From positions 1 through 12,783 of the forward strand of contig JBHJGN010000026.1 in the NCBI GenBank assembly GCA_050331735.1: DNA of 12,783 nucleotides. Reading direction: 5' to 3'. The translations under genes were made by a program, and so were the position numbers. The stretch comes from Cyanophyceae cyanobacterium. GTDB lineage: Bacteria; Cyanobacteriota; Cyanobacteriia; Cyanobacteriales; JBHJGN01. The notes under the pieces were generated by a model. The model was given only the letters and a program-made list of their open reading frames with translations, was not told the origin of the DNA and did not search any database. Of the stretch, positions 2-12,547 are shown piece after piece. How positions within the stretch are numbered: the first letter of the stretch is position 1; every line of letters starts with the position of its first letter.

Positions 2-1657
2 CGGATCTTTCGGCGGACGATGCACTCTCTCCGTTAAAGAAAATCCAGGATTAGCAATTAACCTCCCTAACGCCGGAAAATACCTTGCAGCGCCAATCCC
101 TTCGTAGCCTCGAATTTGATCCACTGTCGCCGCTTTTTCTGGATTGAGTACCGCTTCCATCTCTTCAGTAATACCCACAATTGCCTCAGCCACTTCCGGA
201 TACCGTCGCTTACGGTTGAGCCTCAACAACAACTGCTTAGAGTTCCATAACTTTCCCCGCACAATCTGCCGCGCTACCCCTACCTGAAATTCTTCATCGT
301 GCCGTCGCTCAAACTGTGCCGTCTCAACCACTAAATTATCCGCCTCAGCACTCCATAAGTGCCCCTTATATTCCCCCAACTGAGTTAAAAACACCACTGG
401 AATTTGCTCTGCCAGACACGTCGAAATAACGCTCGTCGTGAGCTGAATATTGCCAAATACGAGAATTCTCTCTACCTCCCGAATCAGTACCTCCAGACGA
501 TCTTCTCCAGGAGGCTGAACCAGAAAACGCCCCTGTTCTTTACGAATCGTTGTTCCTTGCTCTACTAAATAAAGCGTTGCCATCTCTGGAATCCAAGCTT
601 GTTCAACTGATGTAATCGGCACAGATTTTTCTGGACGCACTTCGTACCCCAACACCACAAATAGCGGCGGCGGAATCGGCTTTTGAGCTGCCTTCAGAGC
701 CTCCACCATTGCCAACTGCAACGTATTCGGCTGCGTGACGGTTTCCGCATGAACCAAGCGCTCCCCCTTATTGACTACAACTGGTAGATGGGGTGCTTCG
801 GTTTTTTTAATAGGAACAATCAAATCTCCTGCAAAAGCATGTCCTAAAAAACGAAACCCGCGCTCAAAGGTAGTAATTTGGGTTTTATCCTGATGCAGCA
901 ATAGCCCCATTGCTGAGAGGATTTGAGCTACTTCAACATGAGCTTGAATGAGCCGTTTTTGAGTGCGAGACAGCAGCACAAAATCATCTGCATAGCGCAC
1001 CAGCTTTAGCCCTGATGCGGAAACAATCTCATCAAAGTCATCCAGATAAACATTGGCAAGAATCGGTGAAATAACGGCTCCTTGAGGAATGCCTCTCTGT
1101 GGCAGCACTAATCCTTCTTTAGCTAAAACTCCAACGGTAATCCACGCCTCAATCAAGTCAAGGAATTGAGGAATATCCAGACGTTCTGCTACCTCAGCCA
1201 GCAACCGTGGATGCTCAAGATTATCAAAATACTGAACAATATCGGCATCTAGTACCCATTCGTAGCCTCTATCGCGCCACTGAGCCACCTGACGCACTGC
1301 CATAAGATGAGATCGTCCCGGTCGATAAGCAAAGCTACAGGGTTCAAACTCCTGCTCCATCACTGGATGCAGCACGTTCAGCATCGCCTGCTGCACAATT
1401 CTATCCCTCACCGTCGGCACACGCAGTTCTCGCCATCCCCCCTTCTTTTTGGGGATTACGATCTGTCGCCAAGGCAGCGGACGATAGATTCCTTCAGCAA
1501 CAGTACACCTTAACTGAGATAGATAAGTCTTCTGCCTCGCTCGAAACTCCCCGATTGTCTCTCCATCCACCCCAGCACAGCCCCTATTTTTTGCCACCTT
1601 TTCCCACGCCAACTGAAAATTAGTCCGGCTGAGAAACTGATCCCTTAAAGAACCCAT
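2..1657 (-). CDS. cas1: Reverse transcriptase-Cas1 fusion (RT-Cas1), 3' end beyond the left edge of the window
   Basis: Manual translation from the ATG at 1657 gives 552 codons open to the edge. Group II intron-type RT motifs: MGSLRDQFLSRTNFQLAWEKVAKNRGCAGVDG, IPKKKGGWRELRVPTVRDRIVQQA, SFAYRPGRS, WVLDADIVQYFD, GIPQGAVISPILANVYLD, VRYADDF (YADD at 983-994), GFRFLG. After a linker the same frame gives Cas1 from 583: MATLYLVEQGTTIRKEQGRF, ILVFGNIQLTT, IVRGKLWNS, IRGYEGIGAARYF, RVHRPPKDP. Confidence 0.96.
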   Translation of the reverse strand, partial: MGSLRDQFLSRTNFQLAWEKVAKNRGCAGVDGETIGEFRARQKTYLSQLRCTVAEGIYRPLPWRQIVIPKKKGGWRELRVPTVRDRIVQQAMLNVLHPVMEQEFEPCSFAYRPGRSHLMAVRQVAQWRDRGYEWVLDADIVQYFDNLEHPRLLAEVAERLDIPQFLDLIEAWITVGVLAKEGLVLPQRGIPQGAVISPILANVYLDDFDEIVSASGLKLVRYADDFVLLSRTQKRLIQAHVEVAQILSAMGLLLHQDKTQITTFERGFRFLGHAFAGDLIVPIKKTEAPHLPVVVNKGERLVHAETVTQPNTLQLAMVEALKAAQKPIPPPLFVVLGYEVRPEKSVPITSVEQAWIPEMATLYLVEQGTTIRKEQGRFLVQPPGEDRLEVLIREVERILVFGNIQLTTSVISTCLAEQIPVVFLTQLGEYKGHLWSAEADNLVVETAQFERRHDEEFQVGVARQIVRGKLWNSKQLLLRLNRKRRYPEVAEAIVGITEEMEAVLNPEKAATVDQIRGYEGIGAARYFPALGRLIANPGFSLTERVHRPPKDP

Positions 1658-1742
1658 AGCTTATGAAAGTAGATTGTCGAACTAAGAAGTTACAGCGAAA
1701 AGTTCAGAAAATAGAGAAAGAGACGGCAGAAAAATGTAACAA

Positions 1743-2063
1743 ATGACTCAAACCACCAATAATGGCTGGCAGCAAGCAATATACAGCAACACCAAAGCAT
1801 TGGGAGGATTGGAAGTCAAGGTAGATCGACTAGAAACCAAGGTCGATAGCCTCGGAACAGATGTAGCTGTCCTGAAAGACGATGTAAAAAGCTTAAAGAG
1901 CAACGTAGCCGAACTCAAAGATAATATGAAAGCCTTAATGTCTGAGGTCAGCGAGATCAAGCCAGTCGTCATGTGGGTTAAAGTTATTGCTGGTATCGTC
2001 GGGACAGTCGCGCTTGGTTTTGCTGGAAATTATGTTTACTCAATTTACCAGTCTTTTGCTTAA
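1743..2063 (+). CDS. Small coiled-coil protein with a C-terminal transmembrane helix (hypothetical; XhlA/Bdr-like architecture)
   Basis: Seven heptads (LEVKVDR LETKVDS LGTDVAV LKDDVKS LKSNVAE LKDNMKA LMSEVSE) followed by hydrophobic VVMWVKVIAGIVGTVALGFAG. Purine-rich upstream region. Confidence 0.8.
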   Translation: MTQTTNNGWQQAIYSNTKALGGLEVKVDRLETKVDSLGTDVAVLKDDVKSLKSNVAELKDNMKALMSEVSEIKPVVMWVKVIAGIVGTVALGFAGNYVYSIYQSFA

Positions 2064-2168
2064 CGCTCACAATTCAGTCTTTAAATTCATCAACACTTTC
2101 AGCAACTACCTGTTATCAGAAATTGCATTAATGGCATAAGTCCTCATTAGAAAAACAAGAAGACAACA

Positions 2169-3002
2169 TTAAGCGAATTTCTGATGTTTAAGATTGTATG
2201 TAATTTTAACTTCCATGATCTGTGGAAAATGAATTTGGCTAATGTACTGTAAATGTCTTCTTGGTGTAGCACAGGCGAGAATTATTCCTGCTGTCATTAC
2301 TTTTGTAGCCCCGGTAATATCGGCAATTACTTTAAATTCATCTAAACGTTGGTTCCGAGCATGATTGTAGATGCAGTTTACAAGATGATGAATGTGATTT
2401 GGATCGTCGAGACGATCATCAGGAACAAGCAAACTGAGTTTTTCTCCTGGAAAGTCTAGATCTTCAAGTTCATAGTTGCCGTAATATATTTTGACTTTTT
2501 GAGTTACTCCTTCTTTTGTTAGATTATTAAGCATATTTTTGGCGAAAGGCAAAGATTTCTCTGTACAGATTATCCAACAATGTTCTAGCTGTCCTTTCCC
2601 TTTGTCCCAATGTTCCATAATTGCTCGTTCAGCAGGAGAGTCATTCTTAGGACTCATTGCTACGATTAATCCAGTAAAGTTTTTTTCTAGAGGGTAAACA
2701 TTAGGTTGAGGAGAGGCAGCACCAAAAGCTCCAATAAATTTGTCTCTTAACCAACGGGAGAGAGGTGTAAGGGAGATCAATATAAAGAGAATTGTAGTGA
2801 TTACAGACCAGACCACTAACTTAAATAAGGCTACACTACTAATTCCCAACTGCTTGCCTATCCAGTCTGCAAAATAATCCCAAAATAATGAGGAAAAACC
2901 ATCAGCGATAAGCGTTAGTAGCAGTATACTGATGACAAAAGAATTAAGAAAGCGTTTAGTAGGGTCTGCGATCGCCTCAATTACCGGATTGCGTTGAATC
3001 AT
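2169..3002 (-). CDS. Two-TM + CARF domain protein, Cam1-like type III membrane effector
   Basis: Two N-terminal hydrophobic segments (FVISILLLTLIADGFSSLFW; LFKLVVWSVITTILFILISL). Then a Rossmann-like CARF pattern: GLIVAMS, AIMEH, HCWIICT and the CARF signature VIADITGATKVMTAG. No room for a C-terminal nuclease domain. Located inside a type III locus. Confidence 0.85.
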   Translation of the reverse strand: MIQRNPVIEAIADPTKRFLNSFVISILLLTLIADGFSSLFWDYFADWIGKQLGISSVALFKLVVWSVITTILFILISLTPLSRWLRDKFIGAFGAASPQPNVYPLEKNFTGLIVAMSPKNDSPAERAIMEHWDKGKGQLEHCWIICTEKSLPFAKNMLNNLTKEGVTQKVKIYYGNYELEDLDFPGEKLSLLVPDDRLDDPNHIHHLVNCIYNHARNQRLDEFKVIADITGATKVMTAGIILACATPRRHLQYISQIHFPQIMEVKITYNLKHQKFA

Positions 3003-3341
3003 ATGAAAATTATCGTAAGTTGACTTGGTTTACTAGGACGAAAAGTTGCTACTAGGTTGGTTTGACAAGCAGTATTACTCTGCAAATGATTGACTATCAA
3101 GAGTTACGCATCGGCAACTATCCTTGGAGGATAAGGGAACGAAACATGATTAACTACGTAAGTTCTGACTATATATTTACTACCAGTTGGAACAAAGCTT
3201 TTCCTGAAAAAACGCGGGTCTTTGCTTGAACGAAGCAAATAGCCTGCCTCAATTCCTCTCAGGGAATAACTACTTGCGATCGCCCAGCATTTTCAGACTA
3301 CTGTAAATTTAAGAGAACAGGAGCAGAAATTTAGAGATCCG

Positions 3342-3923
3342 ATGACAGCCTTAACAATTCCTCAAGGGTTTACGGTGAGTCCAGCTCAGTTTGACCAGTT
3401 AGCCCTTGCTAACGACACAGTAAGACTAGAGCTTACTCAGGAGGGAGAACTGATTATTATGCCGCCAACAGGAGGAAGCGCAGGCAATCAAAACTTTGAG
3501 CTTTATATTGACTTGGGCAATTGGAATCGTCGAACTAGATTGGGGAAAGCGTTTGACTCTTCTACAATTTTTATTCTCCCTAACGGTGCGAGGCGATCGC
3601 CAGATGTTGCCTGGGTGCGTTTAGAAAGATGGAACTCTCTCTCCCCTCAAGAGCAACAGGGATTTCCTCCCATTACTCCAGATTTTGTTATCGAGCTAGT
3701 TAGCCCCAGCGATCTGACCAACCAGCGGTATGTAGACTTACAGGCAAAGATGCGCGAGTACATCGAAAATGGCGCTCAGTTAGGCTGGTTAATCGAACCA
3801 AAACAGAAAACTGTAGAAATTTATCGCCCTGCACAAGCTGTTGAAGTTCTTAAACAGCCAGCAACGCTTTCAGGAGAAGCAGTATTGCCCAGATTTGTCC
3901 TAAATCTGAGAGGGTTCTTCTAA
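3342..3923 (+). CDS. Uma2 family endonuclease (DUF820)
   Basis: Motifs RLELTQEGELIIMPPTGG, FDSSTIFILPNGARRSPDVAW, PDFVIELVSPSD, KMREYIENGAQLGWLI. Confidence 0.95.
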   Translation: MTALTIPQGFTVSPAQFDQLALANDTVRLELTQEGELIIMPPTGGSAGNQNFELYIDLGNWNRRTRLGKAFDSSTIFILPNGARRSPDVAWVRLERWNSLSPQEQQGFPPITPDFVIELVSPSDLTNQRYVDLQAKMREYIENGAQLGWLIEPKQKTVEIYRPAQAVEVLKQPATLSGEAVLPRFVLNLRGFF

Positions 3924-4059
3924 ACACTTAGATACAAACAACTCATTTTGAAGGAGCGGACATTCATTGGCAATACTCTGATGACGCTACATCCTCAATT
4001 CTTTATAAACTTTTCAGCGATCGCCGCCGCTTCTCGGTAACTTTAAACACATTCTGCTA

Positions 4060-4099
4060 TCGCAAAAGCAGACATAAAAGATTTTGTGTTTCTTTGCGA
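4060..4099. promoter_or_regulatory. Imperfect inverted repeat (candidate operator) upstream of cas10
   Basis: TCGCAAAAGCAGACATAAAA-GA-TTTTGTGTTTCTTTGCGA. Outer arms TCGCAAA/TTTGCGA are perfect; ends ~50 bp before the ATG at 4151. Confidence 0.45.
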
Positions 4100-4150
4100 A
4101 ATTCATCTCTTCCAGGCTGTAGTTACCCTATAGCTACTCGATCGATAGGA

Positions 4151-6298
4151 ATGTCAGCAACCATCTACACAGCAATTACCTTTGCTCCAGTCCAGGGCTT
4201 TATCGAAAAGTCGCGCAAGCTTCGAGATTTGTATGGAAGTTCCTTCATTTTGTCTTACCTAGCCAGTACCATTTGCTGGGAAGCAAGGTGTCAAGGCTGT
4301 GAAGTTATTTCCCCAGCGCTAATCAACGTCATTCAGGGTACTCCTAATCAAATTATTGTCCGAGGAAATTTCTCAGAAGACGCAGCCCAAGGAGCTTTAA
4401 ATTGGGCTTGGCAAAAAGTTACTGAAAGATGTCGCACCTGGATAGAAGCAAATTGCCAGGCATGGATTCAAGCTCAGCTTGTAGACTGGGCAGTTAAAGA
4501 TAACTGGCATCAAAAGCCCACCTCAAAAACTCTCCCCTGGGGCAGAGATTGGAAGCTGTGGAGCAATCACTCCTGGGAATTTTTTTGGGCGCAAGGAAAA
4601 TCAATTACGGCGGCGCGACAGAATCTAAACGAAAAAAAGCGATCGCGCAACTGGACAGCCGTTAACTGGACTGGAGAAAGCTCAAGCTTATCAGGTGCTG
4701 ATGCAGTTGCGTATCCAGGGATGAGTCGAGTTCCGCCAAAAAAATGGGACTATAGAAGAGAAAAAGAGGCGATTGAGAGCTTTTACCGAGTGCTCAGTGA
4801 AAAAGTAGGCACCGCTTTTCTAGAATACGTTGCAGAACGGCTCAAGCAAGCATCTACCCCAGAATTACGAAAAGAACTGGTTGATAGATACGGAACGGGT
4901 TTTTTAGAGTTTGTCCAAACCACTCTTCCGAAACTAAATCAATACGACAAGCAAGAACTTGCTATTAAGTATGGTGCCCCAATCGTAGATCCTGCTGAAG
5001 AATTAAGCATTCCTGAGTTGGTTAAACGCCTCGTGACTTTAGAAGCGATCGCTCAGCCTATTGGTATCGGTTTTAAAGAAGTGCCTGAAACCTTTCGAGA
5101 ACTTAACCGCCTTAGCCAGAAGAAGGACAAGAACACAAAAGGTAAACAGCAACCAGTTATAGAACCAGATAGTCGCTGGATGGGCTGGTTTCAAGGCGAT
5201 GGAGATCGAGCAGGCGAATATTTACAGTCCCTAGTTAAGTTTGCCACCTTTTGCATCAAGTTTTTTTTCTATAGGCCGACTAGCCTAGAGTTTTTGTGGC
5301 TAAGCATTACTAATTCAGAAAGTCAAGCCTTAAATGTTTTTAGCCATGCCATGCTGAAATGGGGAGAATGTCATCTCAAAACAAGCCTACCCCCAGCAAC
5401 CGGACGTATTATTTATGCAGGAGGAGATGATTTTTTAGGGGTATTTCATCGCCCATCTCCAGATCCACGGTTTCTAAAACCGCTGCTCAATTACCTTGTA
5501 GATAAACAAACTCAGCGGCATCCTGAACCTGCCAGCTTAGAGAAGCTAAGAGAGCAAATTATTGACCAAGGACTTCATAAAAATATTTCTATTCCAGAAT
5601 CCGTTCGCCGAGGCTGGAAAAATATCATTGAGGAAACGGAACACCCCTCAGAATTGGATAGCCATCTTGGGTATGCTGGCTTGAGTCGTCAAGAAGCAGC
5701 CGTCCTCTTTTCACAACCTGTTCTGCAACCGCAAGAATGCTTGGAATGGTTTTACCACTTTCGCTCTACACAAGATCAGGACATCTGGAGCCTTCACAAG
5801 CAGCCAATTACTGTTAGCGTGGGGTTTGTTTGGGCAGCCCCAAACGTACCGCAACGGGATATACTGCAACATTGCAAGGATGCTGAGCAGACTGCCAAAC
5901 GGAAGGGACGCGATCGCCTCTGTATTCGTATCCTCTTCAACGGGGGCAACTACCTCGAATGGGTTTGTCCTTGGTGGTTTTTGGGAGTCTTGAAAGCTTA
6001 CTGCGATCGCAACCAGAAGACAGGGAAGGAAGCTATCTGGAGACATTTATACGAAGATGTTGCGGTATTAGAGTCCCGCCATGCTTTTAGTCAACAAACC
6101 GAAGTTGCCCTCGCGTTGTTTGCAATCTATTTTGGCGAACAAAGAAGACAGGAGCTTGTGGAACATCTTTGGGACACCGAAGAGAAAGCAGGGATTTTAG
6201 ATAACCAGCCATTAGCAAAAGAGTCTGCCAACGAGAAAGCTCTTAATCAATGGATCATCAATCTTGCCAAAGTGGGGTTTCATCTATGTCAACAGTAG
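4151..6298 (+). CDS. cas10: Type III-B Cas10/Cmr2, lacking the HD domain
   Basis: Begins with the Cmr2 motif ITFAPVQGFIEKSRKLRDLYGSSFILSYL; WFQGDGDRAG; Palm2 IIYAGGDDFLG (GGDD at 5420-5431); ITVSVGFVWA; AEQTAKRKGRDR. I prefer the ATG at 4151, where homology begins, over the TTG at 4094. Confidence 0.96.
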   Translation: MSATIYTAITFAPVQGFIEKSRKLRDLYGSSFILSYLASTICWEARCQGCEVISPALINVIQGTPNQIIVRGNFSEDAAQGALNWAWQKVTERCRTWIEANCQAWIQAQLVDWAVKDNWHQKPTSKTLPWGRDWKLWSNHSWEFFWAQGKSITAARQNLNEKKRSRNWTAVNWTGESSSLSGADAVAYPGMSRVPPKKWDYRREKEAIESFYRVLSEKVGTAFLEYVAERLKQASTPELRKELVDRYGTGFLEFVQTTLPKLNQYDKQELAIKYGAPIVDPAEELSIPELVKRLVTLEAIAQPIGIGFKEVPETFRELNRLSQKKDKNTKGKQQPVIEPDSRWMGWFQGDGDRAGEYLQSLVKFATFCIKFFFYRPTSLEFLWLSITNSESQALNVFSHAMLKWGECHLKTSLPPATGRIIYAGGDDFLGVFHRPSPDPRFLKPLLNYLVDKQTQRHPEPASLEKLREQIIDQGLHKNISIPESVRRGWKNIIEETEHPSELDSHLGYAGLSRQEAAVLFSQPVLQPQECLEWFYHFRSTQDQDIWSLHKQPITVSVGFVWAAPNVPQRDILQHCKDAEQTAKRKGRDRLCIRILFNGGNYLEWVCPWWFLGVLKAYCDRNQKTGKEAIWRHLYEDVAVLESRHAFSQQTEVALALFAIYFGEQRRQELVEHLWDTEEKAGILDNQPLAKESANEKALNQWIINLAKVGFHLCQQ

Positions 6299-7470
6299 TC
6301 ACTAATCCAGAAAAAACTATAGAGGAGAAAGGCGCTCGCCCTCTTTTTCAATACCTCATTGTTATTCAGCCGCTAGGCTTTTTATACGGTAGTGCCGGGA
6401 ACTTTCTTTCTCCAGAGAACCTTGTTGGTCGCTCTGGCAGTAGCTTTCCTCCCTCTGCTGCTGCCTTATCTGGGGTATTTGCTGCTCATTACAATTCAAC
6501 AGAGACTAATGATGACGATAAAAAGAAAAAACTTAAACCCTTGCAAGTTGCAGGTCCATTTTGGGGATTTAACGAAGAGCTAGATAATTTTTTAGTTCCT
6601 ACTCCTTTTAACTGCTTGGTAGAAATGAAACGGGATGGGGAAGATGAAGAAAATCAGGTTAGAGCAGGACAAGTTCAGCAAAAAATCTTTTGGCATACCA
6701 AAGATCAGAAGTGGCTCGACCAAAACTATCAAGTTCCCAAAGGGAAGTTTTTCCGTGGTAGTTGGATAAAGATTAATGATTGGCACAAAGTTAATTCAGA
6801 GCAATGGCAAGACACAGAGGTATTTGAGGCTCCTTGGCATTACGTTCCATACCTGCATCCTCAACTAGAAAAACAACAGCGGCGGGTGGATGCCGCTCTC
6901 GAACGAGGCAGTCTGTTTCTAGAAAATGCAGTGGCTTTGCATCCCGACACCTGCATAGTTTATTTGGCTAACGACAAGCTGCCTTACGGCTGGTATCGTT
7001 TTGGCGGTGAAGGGCACATGGTCAATCTCGAATGGCGCTCCCTATCTTTTCAGTGCCAAGAGTTATTGGAAAATGGCTCTCTTAGTAAAAGCTTTGCCTT
7101 AGTTACCCCAGCAATTTGGGGGTCTAATCGCCTGTCGGAAAGGGAACCGATTGTGGCCCAAACAAACCAGAAAGCATGGCAGGTAGAAGCAATGCTCACC
7201 GAGCGTCCAAGTCCCTACCGCTATCGGTTAGGGAAACGGTCTTTAGAACAACCACTGGAAGAAGTATCAAACCGTCAACCACACAAACCTGGACGATTAT
7301 CTAGAGGACGCTACGCTGTACCAGCAGGAACGGTTTATGTTCTAAAAAAGCCTTTTGAACTAGAAAACACCTGGCAGAAATGGCCAGATAGCTGGTTTCC
7401 AAAAGAGGCTTATTCCTTTAAGCGCTGGGGATGCGGATTGGCGCTGCCGTTAGACAATGCGATCGCATAG
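6286..7470 (+). CDS. cmr3: Cmr3 (Cas5-like RAMP)
   Basis: YLIVIQPLGFLYGSAG, FPPSAAALSG, GWYRFGGEGH, YAVPAGTVY, C-terminal WGCGLAL Gly loop. The ATG at 6286 overlaps the cas10 stop; 6250 is an alternative start. Confidence 0.93.
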   Translation: MSTVVTNPEKTIEEKGARPLFQYLIVIQPLGFLYGSAGNFLSPENLVGRSGSSFPPSAAALSGVFAAHYNSTETNDDDKKKKLKPLQVAGPFWGFNEELDNFLVPTPFNCLVEMKRDGEDEENQVRAGQVQQKIFWHTKDQKWLDQNYQVPKGKFFRGSWIKINDWHKVNSEQWQDTEVFEAPWHYVPYLHPQLEKQQRRVDAALERGSLFLENAVALHPDTCIVYLANDKLPYGWYRFGGEGHMVNLEWRSLSFQCQELLENGSLSKSFALVTPAIWGSNRLSEREPIVAQTNQKAWQVEAMLTERPSPYRYRLGKRSLEQPLEEVSNRQPHKPGRLSRGRYAVPAGTVYVLKKPFELENTWQKWPDSWFPKEAYSFKRWGCGLALPLDNAIA

Positions 7471-7493
7471 TTAAAAGTGAGGAAATTTAGTTA

Positions 7494-8327
7494 ATGTATC
7501 AAAAAGCCTACGGTATTATTGAAACCTTAGCGCCGCTTCATGTCGGTGCTAGCGCAGGGGAAGAAACGGGAAATCTCAACCTGATTTTTCGCGATCAGTT
7601 TACCCAAACGGGGATTATTCCTGGTAGCTCGATTCGCGGTCGTTTTCGGGCGGATATGCGGCAATCGAATCAAGATGAAGCTCACTGGTACGGACACGAA
7701 TCCGTACCGGGACAAGCAGACGGCGGCACGACTGAAGCCAGAGTCAAATTTGAATATGCTTCTCTCGTTTGGCTTCCCGTATTTTGTCCTGGGCAACCGA
7801 TTGTTTGGGTAAGCTGTCCTCGTCTGCTGAAACGCTACCAGCAAATTACCGGACTGACTGCCGACACCCCTGAACCCTATACAGCTTCTCCATCTCTCAC
7901 AGGACGCAACATTCAAGGAAACCATCAGGTTTTATTCTTTAACCTTGGTTTCCTCACCGTTGAACAAACCACTGACCTATCCCCCTGGATTCCTCACGGC
8001 GCAGTCCCAGAAGCTAATTTAGTGGTGGTGTCAGATAACGATGTTTCCATGCTGCACGACATGGCCCTCTACCGCCAAAGTCGAGTTTCGCTAGAAACGG
8101 AACAGAAGAAAGCTAAACAGGGCGCTTTTTTCGATGTAGAAGCCTTACCGGAAGGCAGCGTTCTAATATTCCCGATTGCCTTGAAAGAGTCAGGCTGGAA
8201 CCCCTTTAACGGTTCAGTGACGGATGAACTGTACTTTGGGGGACTCGAATCAATTGGCTTTGGTCGCTGTCGCGTCACGCTAGCCGGACAAGGCGTTGCC
8301 GCTCAATCGGTACAGGAGGTGCGATAA
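7494..8327 (+). CDS. cmr4: Cmr4 (Cas7 backbone RAMP)
   Basis: LAPLHVGA, IIPGSSIRGRFR, LVWLPV, VWVSCP, FDVEALPEGSVL, YFGGLESIGFG. GAGG ribosome-binding site upstream. Confidence 0.95.
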   Translation: MYQKAYGIIETLAPLHVGASAGEETGNLNLIFRDQFTQTGIIPGSSIRGRFRADMRQSNQDEAHWYGHESVPGQADGGTTEARVKFEYASLVWLPVFCPGQPIVWVSCPRLLKRYQQITGLTADTPEPYTASPSLTGRNIQGNHQVLFFNLGFLTVEQTTDLSPWIPHGAVPEANLVVVSDNDVSMLHDMALYRQSRVSLETEQKKAKQGAFFDVEALPEGSVLIFPIALKESGWNPFNGSVTDELYFGGLESIGFGRCRVTLAGQGVAAQSVQEVR

Positions 8328-8734
8328 TGGCTTGGCACTACTACAGCCTAGATCGAGAAGCCCAAAAACTGGTGCTAGATGCCAAAATACGCGATCGCAA
8401 TTCTCTCAATCAGTCTTTTAAAATGCGTGAAGCGGTTGCCTACGGTCTAGAACGCTTCTGGGGCGAACATCTGCGCTTGCAAATCAAAGAGCCAGCCAAG
8501 TCCCAGTATTGGAAAGAAACTTGGGATACGCTAGTTAAGCTCATGGAACATGCTAAAGTGCCTCTTCCAAACGATCCTGTCGATGCCAACCAGACCGATA
8601 CGGTGAAGGCAATGGCAGAAAAGCTCTGGCATTTAACAATAGAAGACCAACGAGTGGCTCTAGCTGTGCTTGCTCAACTCTGCGACTGTCTGGTGTGGTG
8701 GACGCAACGGTATAAAGGAGCTTCTGAAGAATGA
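8327..8734 (+). CDS. cmr5: Cmr5 (Cas11 small subunit)
   Basis: 135 aa, helical, between cmr4 and cmr6. YGLERFWGE and LCDCLVWWTQR motifs. AGGAGG RBS and TAATG overlap with cmr4. Confidence 0.85.
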   Translation: MAWHYYSLDREAQKLVLDAKIRDRNSLNQSFKMREAVAYGLERFWGEHLRLQIKEPAKSQYWKETWDTLVKLMEHAKVPLPNDPVDANQTDTVKAMAEKLWHLTIEDQRVALAVLAQLCDCLVWWTQRYKGASEE

Positions 8735-10392
8735 GCCACCATCAAGGAATGGCAGATAAAGTGCCGCTAATGTTTCAAGCCCAAACCGAAGGGCGCTGTC
8801 AGCTTCAGTACGCTGCTTCAGAAGACGCGCAGCGCTGGGCTTCAGAATGGATAGAAAAAGCTGAGTCTTACCCTCGTCAGTGGTCAGGAATACAGTCTCG
8901 CACCTATACCTTAAGCTGGCGGTTTGTCACCAACGGCGGGCAAGATGACGGAATTATTCGTCCGGTAATTGGTGCTTTTGGCTTACCCTACTATCCGGGT
9001 AGCAGCATGAAAGGCGCTTTTCGTGAGGCTTGTCAACAGCTTCATCCTGAGAAAGTGGATGATTACTGTGGAAATGCAGAGAAACCAGGTATTCTCCGTT
9101 TTCATGGCGGCTATCCAACCGACGACCGCTGGCAGGAAAACCTTGTTGATGTTGTGCATCCTCAGCAGGGGTGGCAGGTCAAAACGAACGATACTAGCAA
9201 TAAACCAAGAGGTGAAAGCGCCTTTGCCCTCATTTCTCTTTACAAACCCGAATTTGAGTTCGGGATTTCTAGCACGAGTTCTCTAGAAGCAGCAGAGTGG
9301 AAGACTATTTGGGATATTTGGGAACTGGCAATTTCTGTGGGCTTAGGTTGTCGCGTCAGTGCTGGTTATGGACAACCTAAACAGCAGAAGCGAGACATTC
9401 TCTATCGCGCTCATCTCATTGGACAAGGACTCGCCTCGACTTTGCTGGATGGCGAGAGCGAGTTTCGCCCCAATATCTTCAAGGCAACCTTACGGGGTCA
9501 TGCTTTACGCATCTTTGGTGGCTTAACCGATGCTGCGACAGCAGAAAAGTTGGTGGAAACTTTGTTTGGTGGCGTGACCGAACGGGCGACTGTGGGACTG
9601 CTAGCAATGAACTGGAATGAATTTTCACTGGCACTAAAACCGTTTGACGAGGGCTATGGTGAACCAACCTATGCCGTAGAAGGAGTATTGCGCTGGTTTT
9701 TGACTCAATCCTTGCCGAGTGAAGAGAGAAAAGCCCTTCAGAAGCTAGTCAAAAATTTAACCAGTTTTGCCATGCTGTTAGGAGGGTTTGGTAAGTCTTG
9801 GCGAAGAGCCGATCACAGACTGTTCTATCCTGAATACTATGAGGATAAAGAAATTAAACCCCTGATCGGTTGCCACTGGCAGTGGGGCAAGCGATCGCAG
9901 ATCCCCTACAACGTCGTGCGTCAGCTAGCAACAGTTGGGGATTTTATTGATAATGTCCGCGACTCGGCTCAGGAGTGGATGCAGTGCCAAGGTCTTACTT
10001 CTACCCCCAATAATTATGCCAACTGGCGCGAAGCATGGCATCCAAATCAGGTACAAGTTTGGGGACGAGAGGCAGACAGTGCTGAAGATAGTGAGGCAAT
10101 AGACTGGTTTCACGGACCTTATCAAAAAGCTTATCGAGATTTAGGGATTGCTGAGGGATCTATTTATCACACTGCTATAACAGGTCGAGTCAATCAAATT
10201 AGTCGGCTGTGGAATCGCATGTATCCCAAGATTCGGTTTGTTAAAGATCCTGCTACTCCTAAAAAGCCGATGGCTAGACCAACTAACTTTTTCTTTGAAC
10301 TACTCACTATTTTTCCTGATAGTTCGCCTCGCTCTCGCCAGTTTCTTGATTTTTTAGCATCTGAAATGACTACATTTCAAAGGCTTTGGTAG
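8731..10392 (+). CDS. cmr6: Cmr6-Cmr1 fusion RAMP protein (III-B variant type)
   Basis: N-terminal half is Cmr6-like (GLPYYPGSSMKGAFR, LVDVVHPQ, GLGCRVSAGYG). C-terminal half is Cmr1-like (EFRPNIFKATLRG, LFGG, LLGGFGKSWRR). ATGA overlap with cmr5. Confidence 0.9.
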   Translation: MSHHQGMADKVPLMFQAQTEGRCQLQYAASEDAQRWASEWIEKAESYPRQWSGIQSRTYTLSWRFVTNGGQDDGIIRPVIGAFGLPYYPGSSMKGAFREACQQLHPEKVDDYCGNAEKPGILRFHGGYPTDDRWQENLVDVVHPQQGWQVKTNDTSNKPRGESAFALISLYKPEFEFGISSTSSLEAAEWKTIWDIWELAISVGLGCRVSAGYGQPKQQKRDILYRAHLIGQGLASTLLDGESEFRPNIFKATLRGHALRIFGGLTDAATAEKLVETLFGGVTERATVGLLAMNWNEFSLALKPFDEGYGEPTYAVEGVLRWFLTQSLPSEERKALQKLVKNLTSFAMLLGGFGKSWRRADHRLFYPEYYEDKEIKPLIGCHWQWGKRSQIPYNVVRQLATVGDFIDNVRDSAQEWMQCQGLTSTPNNYANWREAWHPNQVQVWGREADSAEDSEAIDWFHGPYQKAYRDLGIAEGSIYHTAITGRVNQISRLWNRMYPKIRFVKDPATPKKPMARPTNFFFELLTIFPDSSPRSRQFLDFLASEMTTFQRLW

Positions 10393-10523: not shown

Positions 10524-11171
10524 ATGACTCAATCCTCAGTACCAAAGCTAATATCTGATACCTGGGTCAAAGCAACCTGGGAAGAGTTTATCGCCCTTGC
10601 TGACGATCCTCAGTATGCAGAAGGGAGATGCTATTACGACGAAGGGTATTTAAGAATTGAAATGGCAGCATTAGGTCCGGCGCATGGTCAGGATAACTCA
10701 ATTGTTTCCACTGTCGTTGTCGTTTATGCTGCTGTCAACAACATTCCCATTAAAGAATTAACCAATACCAGTTTCAGAAAAATTGGGGTGCGAGAAAGTC
10801 AGCCTGATATAGCTTTTTATATTGGCAACTCCTTACAATTTCCTCCTCGCAACAATTCTCCGGTAGATGTTAATGACCTTGGTGCGCCTACTTTAGTCAT
10901 TGAAATTGGCTCTTCGTCTTTTGCAGATGATATTGGACGGAAGCGCCTGCTCTACGAAAAGCTTGGCATTCAGGAATATTGGGTTGTTGACGTTGCGGAA
11001 GGGGAAGTGCTTGCCTTTGCAGTGGCTAATTTAGGGAGCAAGCGTATTCGTGCATCGCAGGTATTGCCAGGTTTAGACATGGCTTTAGTAGAAGAAGCCC
11101 TTAAGAAATCGCAAACCGAAGATGATGGCGCGATCGCCCGCTGGCTACTCACCACCTTCAGCCCATCTTAG
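10524..11171 (+). CDS. Uma2 family endonuclease
   Basis: WVKATWEEF, YYDEGYLRIEM, GPAHG, QPDIAFYIG, PTLVIEIG, KRLLYEKLGIQEYWVVDV. Confidence 0.94.
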   Translation: MTQSSVPKLISDTWVKATWEEFIALADDPQYAEGRCYYDEGYLRIEMAALGPAHGQDNSIVSTVVVVYAAVNNIPIKELTNTSFRKIGVRESQPDIAFYIGNSLQFPPRNNSPVDVNDLGAPTLVIEIGSSSFADDIGRKRLLYEKLGIQEYWVVDVAEGEVLAFAVANLGSKRIRASQVLPGLDMALVEEALKKSQTEDDGAIARWLLTTFSPS

Positions 11172-11274: not shown

Positions 11275-11481
11275 CTAAGCCGATTGAAAAGAGTAAGTCT
11301 GAGGTTGTGGAAGAGGATCTCGCTCTTCGATCAACATCTCTAATACATCTTGAGCGTTGCTTAAAGCTTCTTCATAAGAATCGCCGTGAGTGTGAGCGTA
11401 TTTCCCAAACTCTGGCAAAGAGACTACATAACACTGGTCTTCCGGGGACCACTGAATTAAGATGCTGTATTGAGATTTCAT
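11275..11481 (-). CDS. hicB: HicB family antitoxin (short form, no DNA-binding domain)
   Basis: YSILIQWSPEDQCYVVSLPEF, THGDSYEEALSNAQDVL. 4-bp overlap with hicA. Confidence 0.92.
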   Translation of the reverse strand: MKSQYSILIQWSPEDQCYVVSLPEFGKYAHTHGDSYEEALSNAQDVLEMLIEERDPLPQPQTYSFQSA

Positions 11482-11684
11482 GATTCTGCTTCCTCTATTT
11501 CTCTAAGATAGCTTTTGACATCTCTTTCCTGATAGGGCTTAGCATCCTGCCCGTCATTTCCAGAAAGGGTTAGTTTATCCATTAGTCGAGGATGTTTCCA
11601 CTTAGTATGGCTGCCTTTCCCAGATTCACTCATACAGCCAGCTTGGCGTAACATCTGTTTTAATTCTCGGATTTTCTTGGGCAT
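11478..11684 (-). CDS. hicA: HicA family toxin (mRNA interferase)
   Basis: MPKKIRELKQML, GKGSHTKWKHP (catalytic His motif), LSGNDGQDAKPYQE. Confidence 0.93.
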   Translation of the reverse strand: MPKKIRELKQMLRQAGCMSESGKGSHTKWKHPRLMDKLTLSGNDGQDAKPYQERDVKSYLREIEEAES

Positions 11685-12012
11685 AGCGAATACTCATCTT
11701 TATCTGTGCCTCCTAAATCCACTGTTCCCAAAGTCACTGGTAGCTTCTCCTCCAGCTTCGTCAGCAGAGGTTTTGCCGCTTACTAATCTTGCTCAAAACC
11801 GCCAATCCTGTTTTTTTCTAATCGAGGCCTATAGAAAATTGCCTGTTGCCATCTTACCCTTATTGAGGGATTACTTTGACAGACAGGCTGTTCCAAACAT
11901 TAATAAAACGACATCATTAACAGTCTGTAAAAGCAGGCAAGAAAATAGCGGCCTATAATCGGGGAGAGCGCCTCTTTTGCTACAAATGAGGTTAAAAAAA
12001 GGGATTTATACC

Positions 12013-12189
12013 ATGATCAGTCTGGGACACACCGTTCAGCCATCTCGTCAGTTTAATGGGCAAGGGCTCAGTAGTTGTTTGCTCGTTTTTGCTTGGCTGT
12101 GCGTCAGTTTCACTAGCTGGCGCTGGCTGGCTCAAGAGCTAATCGCCTCCCGCTTTCACTTTGCTTTCGCTAGCCTGATTGCCGTGGGT
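12013..12189 (+). pseudogene. 5' part of a membrane-protein gene, apparently interrupted by IS701
   Basis: MISLGHT...LSSCLLVFAWLCVSFTSWRWLAQELIASRFHFAFASLIAVG has two hydrophobic segments and then runs into IS sequence. TATAAT at 11954-11959 and AAGGGA upstream. Confidence 0.45.
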
Positions 12190-12421
12190 CTGTTGTACCT
12201 AAGGATAAAATCGCTATCAGGCAGAGAGAGCAATGGATGTGGAGCTACAGATTCTCAGACATTTGCCGAGGGACGCTCAGCCGACCATATCATTCATTGA
12301 TGAATATTGTAGCGGCTACAAAGACTTGTTTAAAGAAGTAAGAGGATACGAATGCTTTAAATATTTACATCTAGGCATTATCTCACCAATAAGCGCGAAA
12401 ATCACTGCCAGAAATTGCCAA

Positions 12422-12468
12422 CTCGCGCGTTCCCTTGCGCCTGTCGGCGGCGCGGGGTCGCTCGTCAA
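12422..12468. repeat. 47-bp GC-rich hairpin insertion with a CAA duplication
   Basis: Removing it restores GAA ATT GCC AAA GTA GTC (EIAKVV). CAA occurs at 12419-12421 and 12466-12468. Stem CCTTGCGCC/GGCGCGGGG includes G-U pairs. Confidence 0.7.
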
Positions 12469-12502
12469 AGTAGTCAGAATTAACTCGGCACAATCATTGC
12501 AT

Positions 12503-12547
12503 CCTTGGTGCGCCTAAATTCGGAGGGAACCTCCGAGGCGGCGCATC
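12503..12547. repeat. 45-bp hairpin insertion (small dispersed repeat-like)
   Basis: Removing it restores TTG CAT CGC TTT ATT GCC CAA TCA CCT TGG (LHRFIAQSPW). Inner stem TCGGAGG-GAA-CCTCCGA is perfect; outer stem GGTGCGCC/GGCGCATC. Confidence 0.75.

Follow-up and report, generated by a model that had tools for sequence, protein, structure and literature searches.

The stretch of DNA analysed here, referred to as the window, comprises positions 1 to 12,783 of contig JBHJGN010000026.1 (assembly GCA_050331735.1, Cyanophyceae cyanobacterium). Our subject is a gene within it for a small protein with two predicted transmembrane (TM) helices and a CARF domain, called 2TM-CARF below, which lies in a type III CRISPR locus (Table 1). 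We consider it likely that 2TM-CARF is a membrane effector of type III CRISPR immunity that is gated by cyclic oligoadenylate (cOA), probably by cyclic tetra-adenylate (cA4).

Protein architecture

The start codon is taken to be right because 30 homologues align with the protein from residue 1-2 onwards. On the Kyte-Doolittle scale, 19-residue windows exceed 1.9 only at residues ~18-41 and ~54-82, defining two hydrophobic segments. An AlphaFold2 model made with a 31-sequence alignment has a mean predicted local distance difference test score (pLDDT) of 85.5. It contains helices at residues 14-52, 57-78 and 81-93, followed at residues 101-266 by a domain of alternating strands and helices modelled with pLDDT 93-98. 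The structural match of this domain to CARF proteins (see below) covers model residues 98-269 of 277, leaving no room for a catalytic domain.

Domain searches of the protein with Pfam and PHROGs each gave zero matches, while the NCBIfam CARF entry TIGR02710 matched weakly over residues 198-248 (E 5e-4; 19 bits, the cut-off being 83.9). Two PADLOC profiles are matched strongly: PDLC01942, 'CARF8--CARF_TM' (E 1.1e-98; residues 4-274 on positions 1-262 of the 264 in the profile), and PDLC01168, 'CARF, 2 TMs' (E 7.5e-44). The layout of two N-terminal TM helices followed by CARF is present here as the labels of these groups state. The family is thus already catalogued by computation in PADLOC; the two PADLOC groups and TIGR02710 are computational bins. 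An earlier interpretation of the DNA without database searches, the sequence-only reading, had described two TM helices, a linker and a CARF domain bearing the motif DITGATKVMT, with no catalytic domain, and this is borne out by hydropathy, the AlphaFold2 model and the position of the motif.

The sensor domain

When the model is compared with the PDB using Foldseek, the top matches are the three Cam1 CARF entries (E 4.4e-8 and TM-score 0.72 on the target for 8t66_A; TM-scores 0.72-0.75 across the three), and almost all of the at least 31 structural matches at E <= 0.001 are CARF proteins. The Foldseek comparison, named with the original prediction as a way of checking it, confirms the CARF fold and puts Cam1 first. 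Pairwise superposition with VIA-align agrees: cA4-bound Cam1 (8t65_B) matches with Z 16.4 and a root-mean-square deviation of 2.4 Å over 141 of 153 residues (model range 98-269), and the other cA4-binding CARFs Cdn1, Can2, Card1 and TtCsm6 give Z of 15.1, 14.8, 14.2 and 14.0, respectively. Across Cam1, Cdn1, Can2, Card1, Csm6, ring nucleases of the Crn1 type and Cami1, Z ranges from 16.4 to 12. As modelled, the sensor of 2TM-CARF is a canonical CARF domain with a Rossmann-like fold.

Sequence comparison reaches Cam1 from a broad profile. A search of PDB sequences with the single protein found no CARF match. A profile of 69 sequences, which includes distant 2TM-CARF proteins, found Cam1 first (E 1.8e-6 over the CARF part) and the ring nuclease Sso2081 second (E 0.004). 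Bridging to Cam1 through the single-TM relatives P0163, P0172 and P0186 failed for all three in PDB searches, two being blank and one matching Sso2081 at E 0.001.

The alignment to the 69-sequence profile places Cam1 T97 and Y180 on T147 and Y253 of 2TM-CARF, both of which are invariant in the 31 members of the close family. According to the description of Cam1 in PMC10808066, T97 and Y180 hydrogen-bond cA4 and their mutation reduces affinity or function. Cam1 T183 aligns with the invariant Q256, and Cam1 K160 falls one column ahead of K234, which is K in 30 of the 31 sequences. In the motif at residues 228-237, D228, T230 and G231 are likewise invariant (31/31), and the motif aligns with D-L-T-G-G-K of Cam1 and D-I-T-G-G-R-K of Sso2081. 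A second conserved stretch, G-L-I-V-A-M-S, follows the first strand and includes S117, kept in 30/31. The S117 loop after strand 1 and the D-x-T-G...K loop after strand 4 are what we take to be the ligand-loop motifs of CARF domains. The comparison with Cam1 offered by the sequence-only reading therefore stands, in the best structural match, in remote sequence homology and in conserved ligand contacts. Elsewhere in the sensor, one His, three Cys and one Trp (H131, C142, C146, C244 and W143) are invariant in the close family, and H131, C142, W143 and C244 are largely retained in the wider group as well.

The membrane part

Conservation of the first TM helix (TM1) equals that of the sensor, with mean column information of 2.93 bits against 2.94 for the CARF domain; the second helix (TM2) averages 2.20 and the outer loop between them 1.62. 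TM1 residues conserved at 90% or more are P14, F18, F22, T26, D34, G35 and W41. At the mid-membrane position D34, 28 of the 31 sequences have D and 3 have N, and G35 is G in all 31. Of the 69 sequences in the wider group, 52 have N, D, S or Q at the D34 position and 28 have D at position 38. Conservation of this degree would be superfluous in a simple anchor. The pore model of Cam1, as set out in PMC10808066, relies on a conserved TM aspartate, D17. No clear 100-degree peak was found in the helical periodicity of TM1 conservation, and we therefore do not propose that a single face of the helix is conserved.

The predicted hairpin is flanked by basic residues on both sides (R4, K16 and R17 on the N-terminal side; R83, R86 and K88 after TM2), which fits an N-in/C-in topology with a cytosolic CARF domain. 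A tetramer prediction with four copies of residues 17-266 and alignment A1, that of the close family, scored 0.10 against a mark of 0.42; controls were not run and the result carries no weight.

Cas10 and the cmr operon

The Cas10/Cmr2 protein encoded near 2TM-CARF has no Pfam match to an HD domain, its Cmr2_N match beginning at residue 26. It keeps the GGDD cyclase motif and is predicted to be signalling-competent. Beyond it lie genes for Cmr3, Cmr4, a 135-residue protein in the Cmr5 position without a family match, and a 553-residue protein of the repeat-associated mysterious protein (RAMP) superfamily of Cmr1/Cmr6 type (PADLOC Cmr6, E 1.1e-210); no match to Cas6 was found among the 15 open reading frames (ORFs) of the window that were scanned. 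PMC6546367 defines type III-Bv by a Cmr1-Cmr6 fusion, in a layout as in Synechocystis CRISPR3. Judged by its genes, the locus matches this III-B variant: Cas10/Cmr2, Cmr3, Cmr4, Cmr5 and a fused Cmr1-Cmr6, without cas6. Pfam, NCBIfam and PADLOC scans recognised no ring nuclease encoded in the window.

The genome has one copy of 2TM-CARF. Searches of the genome for Cas_Cas02710, Cas_APE2256 and SAVED gave no match, the blanks for the last two being weak as control genomes were also silent. The sequence-only reading had made 2TM-CARF the effector of its cognate Cas10. The CARF fold, the type III linkage and an adjacent GGDD-bearing Cas10 without HD domain support the effector role, but the adjacent Cas10 is not an exclusive partner, the genome having a second one in a III-D system.

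Family distribution and genomic context

Besides its own, 51 homologue clusters of 2TM-CARF were found, the best at 53% identity. At the level of representatives, 56 clusters were retrieved at E <= 1e-30, 484 at <= 1e-10 and 1085 at <= 1e-3; those listed are mostly 230-300 residues long with two N-terminal hydrophobic segments. Genomic context was assessed in 68 loci, using one genome per species, of which 30 were classed as close (>= 32% identity over >= 200 residues). All 30 close loci are cyanobacterial and 29 have CRISPR genes within the DNA covered. The cyanobacterial setting named in the sequence-only reading, where thylakoid or plasma membrane might be the site of action, is consistent with this and with the apocytochrome f encoded in the same genome; all named close homologues are cyanobacterial.

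Twenty-two of the 30 close loci contain a reverse transcriptase (RT)-Cas1 fusion in the DNA covered; it follows 2TM-CARF immediately downstream, on the same strand, in 16 (gaps of 39-1389 nucleotides) and is its divergent neighbour in 2. This suggests an operon uniting 2TM-CARF with the adaptation module; the shortest gaps are 39-43 nucleotides. Cmr or Cas10 genes occur in 15/30, and either these or RT-Cas1 in 25/30. Typically, a cmr1/6-cmr5-cmr4-cmr3-cas10 unit is divergent from 2TM-CARF followed by RT-Cas1. Wherever the motif was covered, in 19 of 21 syntenic Cas10 homologues, GGD[DE] is kept (19/19, the other 2 being uncovered).

Twelve close loci without Cmr matches were rescanned against PADLOC (84 ORFs of >= 180 residues). 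Of the five close loci with neither RT-Cas1 nor Cmr/Cas10, four carry a III-A operon, Cas6 or WYL/Csx3 genes. Directly upstream of 2TM-CARF are a III-D operon in locus L025 and a III-A operon in L027. Cas6-HTH (helix-turn-helix) is a neighbour in L015, L020, L023 and L026, WYL with Csx3-AAA is found in L002, L016, L021, L026 and L034, and L037 has a Cas7 fragment; nothing was matched among the 8 ORFs scanned in L017. Because the family also stands beside III-A, III-D, Cas6-HTH and other CRISPR genes, it constitutes a type III accessory module that is portable and is linked most frequently to RT-Cas1/III-Bv loci.

In six further loci (L045, L054, L060, L062, L064 and L065) matches are limited to residues ~200-255. 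The matching segment lies between cas10 and RT-Cas1 in L060 and L065 and just upstream of RT-Cas1 in L064. These may be decayed gene remnants within otherwise intact III-Bv loci.

Comparison with known membrane effectors

A 2026 preprint counts four studied membrane CARF effectors: Cam1, Cap1, Csx23 and Chp1. In their published descriptions Cam1, Cap1 and Chp1 are cA4-activated tetrameric membrane effectors that depolarise the cell (PMC10808066; 10.1101/2025.11.13.688252; 10.64898/2026.08.05.743128). 2TM-CARF resembles Cam1 of Nitrosococcus halophilus (PDB 8T64/8T65/8T66), as described in PMC10808066, in having an N-terminal TM region, a C-terminal canonical CARF and no enzymatic domain, in a conserved acidic residue inside a TM helix (D17 and D34, though in a different helix context), and in being encoded in a type III locus. 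The setting differs: Cam1 was studied in a III-A context, whereas the 2TM-CARF family belongs to cyanobacteria and is associated with RT-Cas1 and III-Bv. Membership of the Cam1 family was rejected, since 2TM-CARF has neither direct sequence similarity to it nor a single TM helix.

Cap1 of Parafilimonas terrae is reported to form a tetrameric pore opened by cA4 (10.1101/2025.11.13.688252). Like 2TM-CARF, it has two N-terminal TM helices and then a cOA sensor, and in the account given there many Cap1 homologues consist of TM helices and sensor only, PtCap1 carrying DUF4579 in addition. We also rejected 2TM-CARF as a Cap1 homologue: its CARF is canonical, as judged against chains that included no Cap1 structure, and the Cap1 motif is absent, the pattern R...QQ having no occurrence in the 277 residues. 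Chp1, from Bacteroidales, is described as a tetramer with CARF dimers in which cA4 shifts a linker helix and the pore opens (10.64898/2026.08.05.743128); it shares with 2TM-CARF a TM helix returning to the cytosol, a linker and a C-terminal CARF.

Csx23 and the CARF-TM effector of Panoptes are, like 2TM-CARF, small membrane proteins, both under cOA control. The sensor of Csx23 is not described as CARF. In the Panoptes effector the TM domain is C-terminal, and cyclic triadenylate (cA3) keeps the protein off rather than switching it on.

Base composition

The sequence-only reading had noted that the gene is more AT-rich than the cmr genes, and had seen in this a swapped-in module. The difference is real: 2TM-CARF has a GC content of 0.376 against 0.45-0.50 for the cmr genes, and at third codon positions (GC3) 0.306 against 0.39-0.46. 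Among 2754 long ORFs of the genome (5.57 Mb, GC 0.495; mean GC3 0.511, standard deviation 0.064), this GC3 ranks at about the 1st percentile. A low-GC island at ~1800-3300 takes in the gene and both flanking spacers, and the cas genes of the locus are also below the genome mean. Among 27 relatives with cas neighbours, the GC3 of the TM-CARF gene minus that of its neighbours has a mean of +0.021, with negative values in 9. Low GC is thus no family trait, and the deficit of about -0.1 is specific to the locus studied.

The composition suggests a separate or recent origin of the gene; phylogenetic distance gives no confirmation. When TM-CARF identities were regressed on those of RT-Cas1, Cmr4 and Cmr1/6, no outlier was seen, with mean residuals of -0.015, -0.046 and -0.026, respectively, against standard deviations of 0.064-0.081. 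The idea of a swapped-in module thus keeps the support of a locus-specific low GC3 but gains none from divergence. A scan for promoters and terminators over 1500-4200 found 7 promoter-like sites (5.3 expected) and 3 terminator-like sites (1.9 expected), not above the expectation from shuffled sequence.

Proposed mechanism and alternatives

In the mechanism that we propose, the Cmr complex would bind a target transcript and Cas10 would produce cOA, most likely cA4. An already assembled oligomer, probably a dimer of dimers, would bind the cOA between two of its CARF domains, with one ligand per CARF dimer. The basic linker helix at 81-93 would then move and rearrange the TM hairpins so that ions could pass, the best candidate for lining or gating the pore being the conserved polar stripe around D34-G35 in TM1. 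Collapse of the membrane potential would lead to arrested growth in the infected cell and so block phage replication. Since Cas10 lacks an HD domain, much of the locus's defence output would fall to this signalling arm. Beyond the architecture, the type III linkage and a Cas10 that is HD-less and apparently signalling-competent, we infer the mechanism by analogy with Cam1, Cap1 and Chp1.

Several points weigh against this interpretation. The pore model is a transferred one, since the predicted TM architecture is unlike that of any studied effector. As the respective sources describe them, Cam1 has 206 residues and one TM helix, compared with 277 residues, two TM helices and a linker helix here; Cap1 senses through a non-canonical CARF-like domain, which bears the motif R(X3)QQ(X10)L and binds one cA4 per four domains, whereas 2TM-CARF has a canonical CARF; and Chp1 combines four TM helices with a HAD phosphatase domain at its N-terminus, neither of which 2TM-CARF has. 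Identity to Cam1 in structural alignments is only 13-17%, as against the ~40-47% shared by the Cam1 homologues of PMC10808066, and the close-family profile A1, when run against PDB sequences, finds no CARF, Cam1 included. The Cam1 contact S75/N76 is beyond the reach of the profile alignment, and cA4 is the most likely ligand by analogy, judged from neighbours in fold and from two contacts that are conserved. Conservation is poor in TM2 and the outer loop. The window is without a CRISPR array, and the arrays on four other contigs are not assignable to this locus; the second Cas10, in the III-D operon on contig C81, might also feed the sensor. Finally, the literature searched, which did not cover the supplementary homologue tables of Cam1 and Cap1, yielded no experimental study of the 2TM-CARF family.

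The fold itself raises the question of whether the protein might instead be a membrane-tethered ring nuclease or cOA sink, whose CARF domain binds and slowly cleaves cOA to end the response while the helices merely anchor it. Stand-alone CARF ring nucleases are strong fold matches (Sis0455 Z 13.5, Sis0811 12.8, Sso2081 12.7), and Sso2081 takes second place in the wide-profile search. That other CARF domains, ring nucleases among them, come within ~3-4 Z units of Cam1 also tells against an effector role. Ring nucleases employ Ser and Lys at places such as those of S117, a nearly invariant residue of the loop behind strand 1, and of K234, which belongs to the D-x-T-G...K loop. The window, moreover, has no recognised ring nuclease, whereas several relatives have Csx3-AAA genes nearby. 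Yet Cam1 ranks first both structurally and by sequence. A mere anchor would require neither sensor-level conservation of TM1 nor an invariant mid-membrane D-G pair. Moreover, Cas10 has no HD domain and no further sensor-effector was found in the window, so that signalling would have no output in a locus left with a degrader alone. We therefore regard this explanation as quite unlikely, although some slow intrinsic cleavage of cOA is possible and would be compatible with a gated membrane effector. A membrane-bound cOA sensor that acts without a pore on the adaptation module or another partner, for example by recruiting or regulating RT-Cas1, would account for the frequent adjacency of the RT-Cas1 gene and for a linkage to it that is tighter than that to Cas10/Cmr (22/30 and 15/30). 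The family is, however, also found with no RT-Cas1 adjoining, behind III-A and III-D operons and beside Cas6-HTH. No interaction surface or partner domain is evident in 2TM-CARF, accessory and adaptation genes often share operons for organisational reasons, and all studied TM-CARF proteins, in the account of the 2026 preprint, act on the membrane itself. We regard this alternative as very unlikely.

The composition of the gene could also mean that it is a recently acquired passenger, poorly integrated or non-functional, outside the working defence of the locus. Its extreme GC3 and the low-GC island would fit, as would the unrelated opposite-strand ORF that separates it from RT-Cas1, unlike in other loci, and the finding of even partial matches in only 3 of 40 genomes of the same order. 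But the frame is intact and full-length, all 25 family-invariant columns are kept (the invariance includes this sequence itself), the gene is where the family is usually found, between cas10 and RT-Cas1, and it has diverged from relatives about as its cas neighbours have. A passenger of this kind appears very unlikely. The gated membrane effector could also be taken further, to a cOA-gated pore of new architecture in thylakoid-bearing cyanobacteria, in which eight TM helices from four hairpins would be gated by the D-G stripe of TM1 and would collapse the photosynthetic proton gradient of the thylakoid as an abortive-infection switch; the co-orientation with RT-Cas1 might then couple dormancy to spacer capture from RNA. 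We consider this fuller scheme unlikely as it stands.

CARF effectors that act on membranes form a small class of recent date. None of the four studied is cyanobacterial and none pairs a two-helix hairpin with a canonical CARF. 2TM-CARF is compact, widespread in filamentous and marine cyanobacteria, and linked to III-Bv systems that have RT-Cas1 and are HD-less. The family would lend itself to testing how a nucleotide gates a minimal TM hairpin, and could show which membrane is targeted by a cyanobacterial abortive-infection effector and whether signalling is the main output of III-Bv. Given that PADLOC already bins the family and that the mechanism is predicted by analogy, the finding is expected and not a surprise.

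Neighbouring genes and other loci

Table 1. Features of the 2TM-CARF gene, its surroundings in the window and further CRISPR loci on other contigs (handles C33 and C81)
Feature	Position	Strand	Basis or remark
2TM-CARF gene (P0001)	2169..3002	-	277 residues; open frame; full-length match to PADLOC PDLC01942
Predicted TM helix 1, residues ~18-42, with nearly invariant D34 and invariant G35	2877..2951	-	Hydropathy; model helix 14-52
Predicted TM helix 2, residues ~56-80, hydrophobic, poorly conserved	2763..2837	-	Hydropathy; model helix 57-78
Juxtamembrane linker helix, residues 81-93, basic (R83, R86, K88)	2724..2762	-	Model helix; sequence
CARF domain, residues ~101-269	2196..2702	-	pLDDT 93-98; Foldseek; VIA-align
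DITGATKVMT, residues 228-237, D-x-T-G...K CARF ligand-loop motif	2292..2321	-	Family alignment
AT-rich intergenic region upstream of 2TM-CARF	3003..3341		GC 0.395; part of the low-GC island
RT-Cas1 fusion, truncated by the contig end, downstream of 2TM-CARF	2..1657	-	Pfam RVT_1 4.4e-39, Cas_Cas1 2.6e-44
106-residue ORF (P0197) between 2TM-CARF and RT-Cas1	1743-2063	+	Coiled coil and C-terminal TM helix
Uma2-family (PF05685) gene between 2TM-CARF and cas10	3342-3923	+	Pfam
Cas10/Cmr2 without HD domain	4151..6298	+	ATG at 4151 within a TTG frame opening at 4094; PADLOC Cas10b E 1.8e-181
GGDD cyclase motif of Cas10	5420..5431	+	Residues 443-446 of the TTG frame
cmr3, cmr4, ORF in cmr5 position, 553-residue Cmr1/Cmr6-type RAMP	6250..10392	+	Pfam, NCBIfam, PADLOC
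Second Uma2-family (PF05685) gene	10524-11171	+	Pfam
HicB/HicA toxin-antitoxin pair next to the cmr operon	11275-11684	-	Family match
III-D system (L078)	C81:3631-12599		Cas10 of 810 residues, Csx10, several Csx7 RAMPs
Cmr4 and Cmr5 paralogues at contig end	C33 ~57411-58685 (L077 15412-16685)		75% and 73% identity to those of the window

The ORF between 2TM-CARF and RT-Cas1 has weak matches, below cut-off, to XhlA/'hemolysin' and other coiled-coil families. It has a paralogue with 66% identity on contig C5 and is absent from all 68 related loci. The two Uma2-family genes flank the cmr operon, and the first splits cas10 from 2TM-CARF, an arrangement that most related loci do not share. No family match was obtained for three more ORFs, at 11677-12517.

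The final 46 residues of the RT-Cas1 fragment (2-139) recur at 100% identity at positions 2-139 of contig C72, which goes on into unrelated housekeeping genes (TPS domain, TatC, cytochrome f). The duplicate looks like an assembly-graph overlap or repeat. The Cmr4 and Cmr5 paralogues on C33 are preceded by siderophore-transport and polyketide synthase genes, not by cas10 and cmr3, and are an orphan or broken second Cmr module. Near the III-D system on C81 are a fragment resembling a cyclase of cyclic-oligonucleotide-based antiphage signalling systems (CBASS) and pieces of TnpB/IS630.

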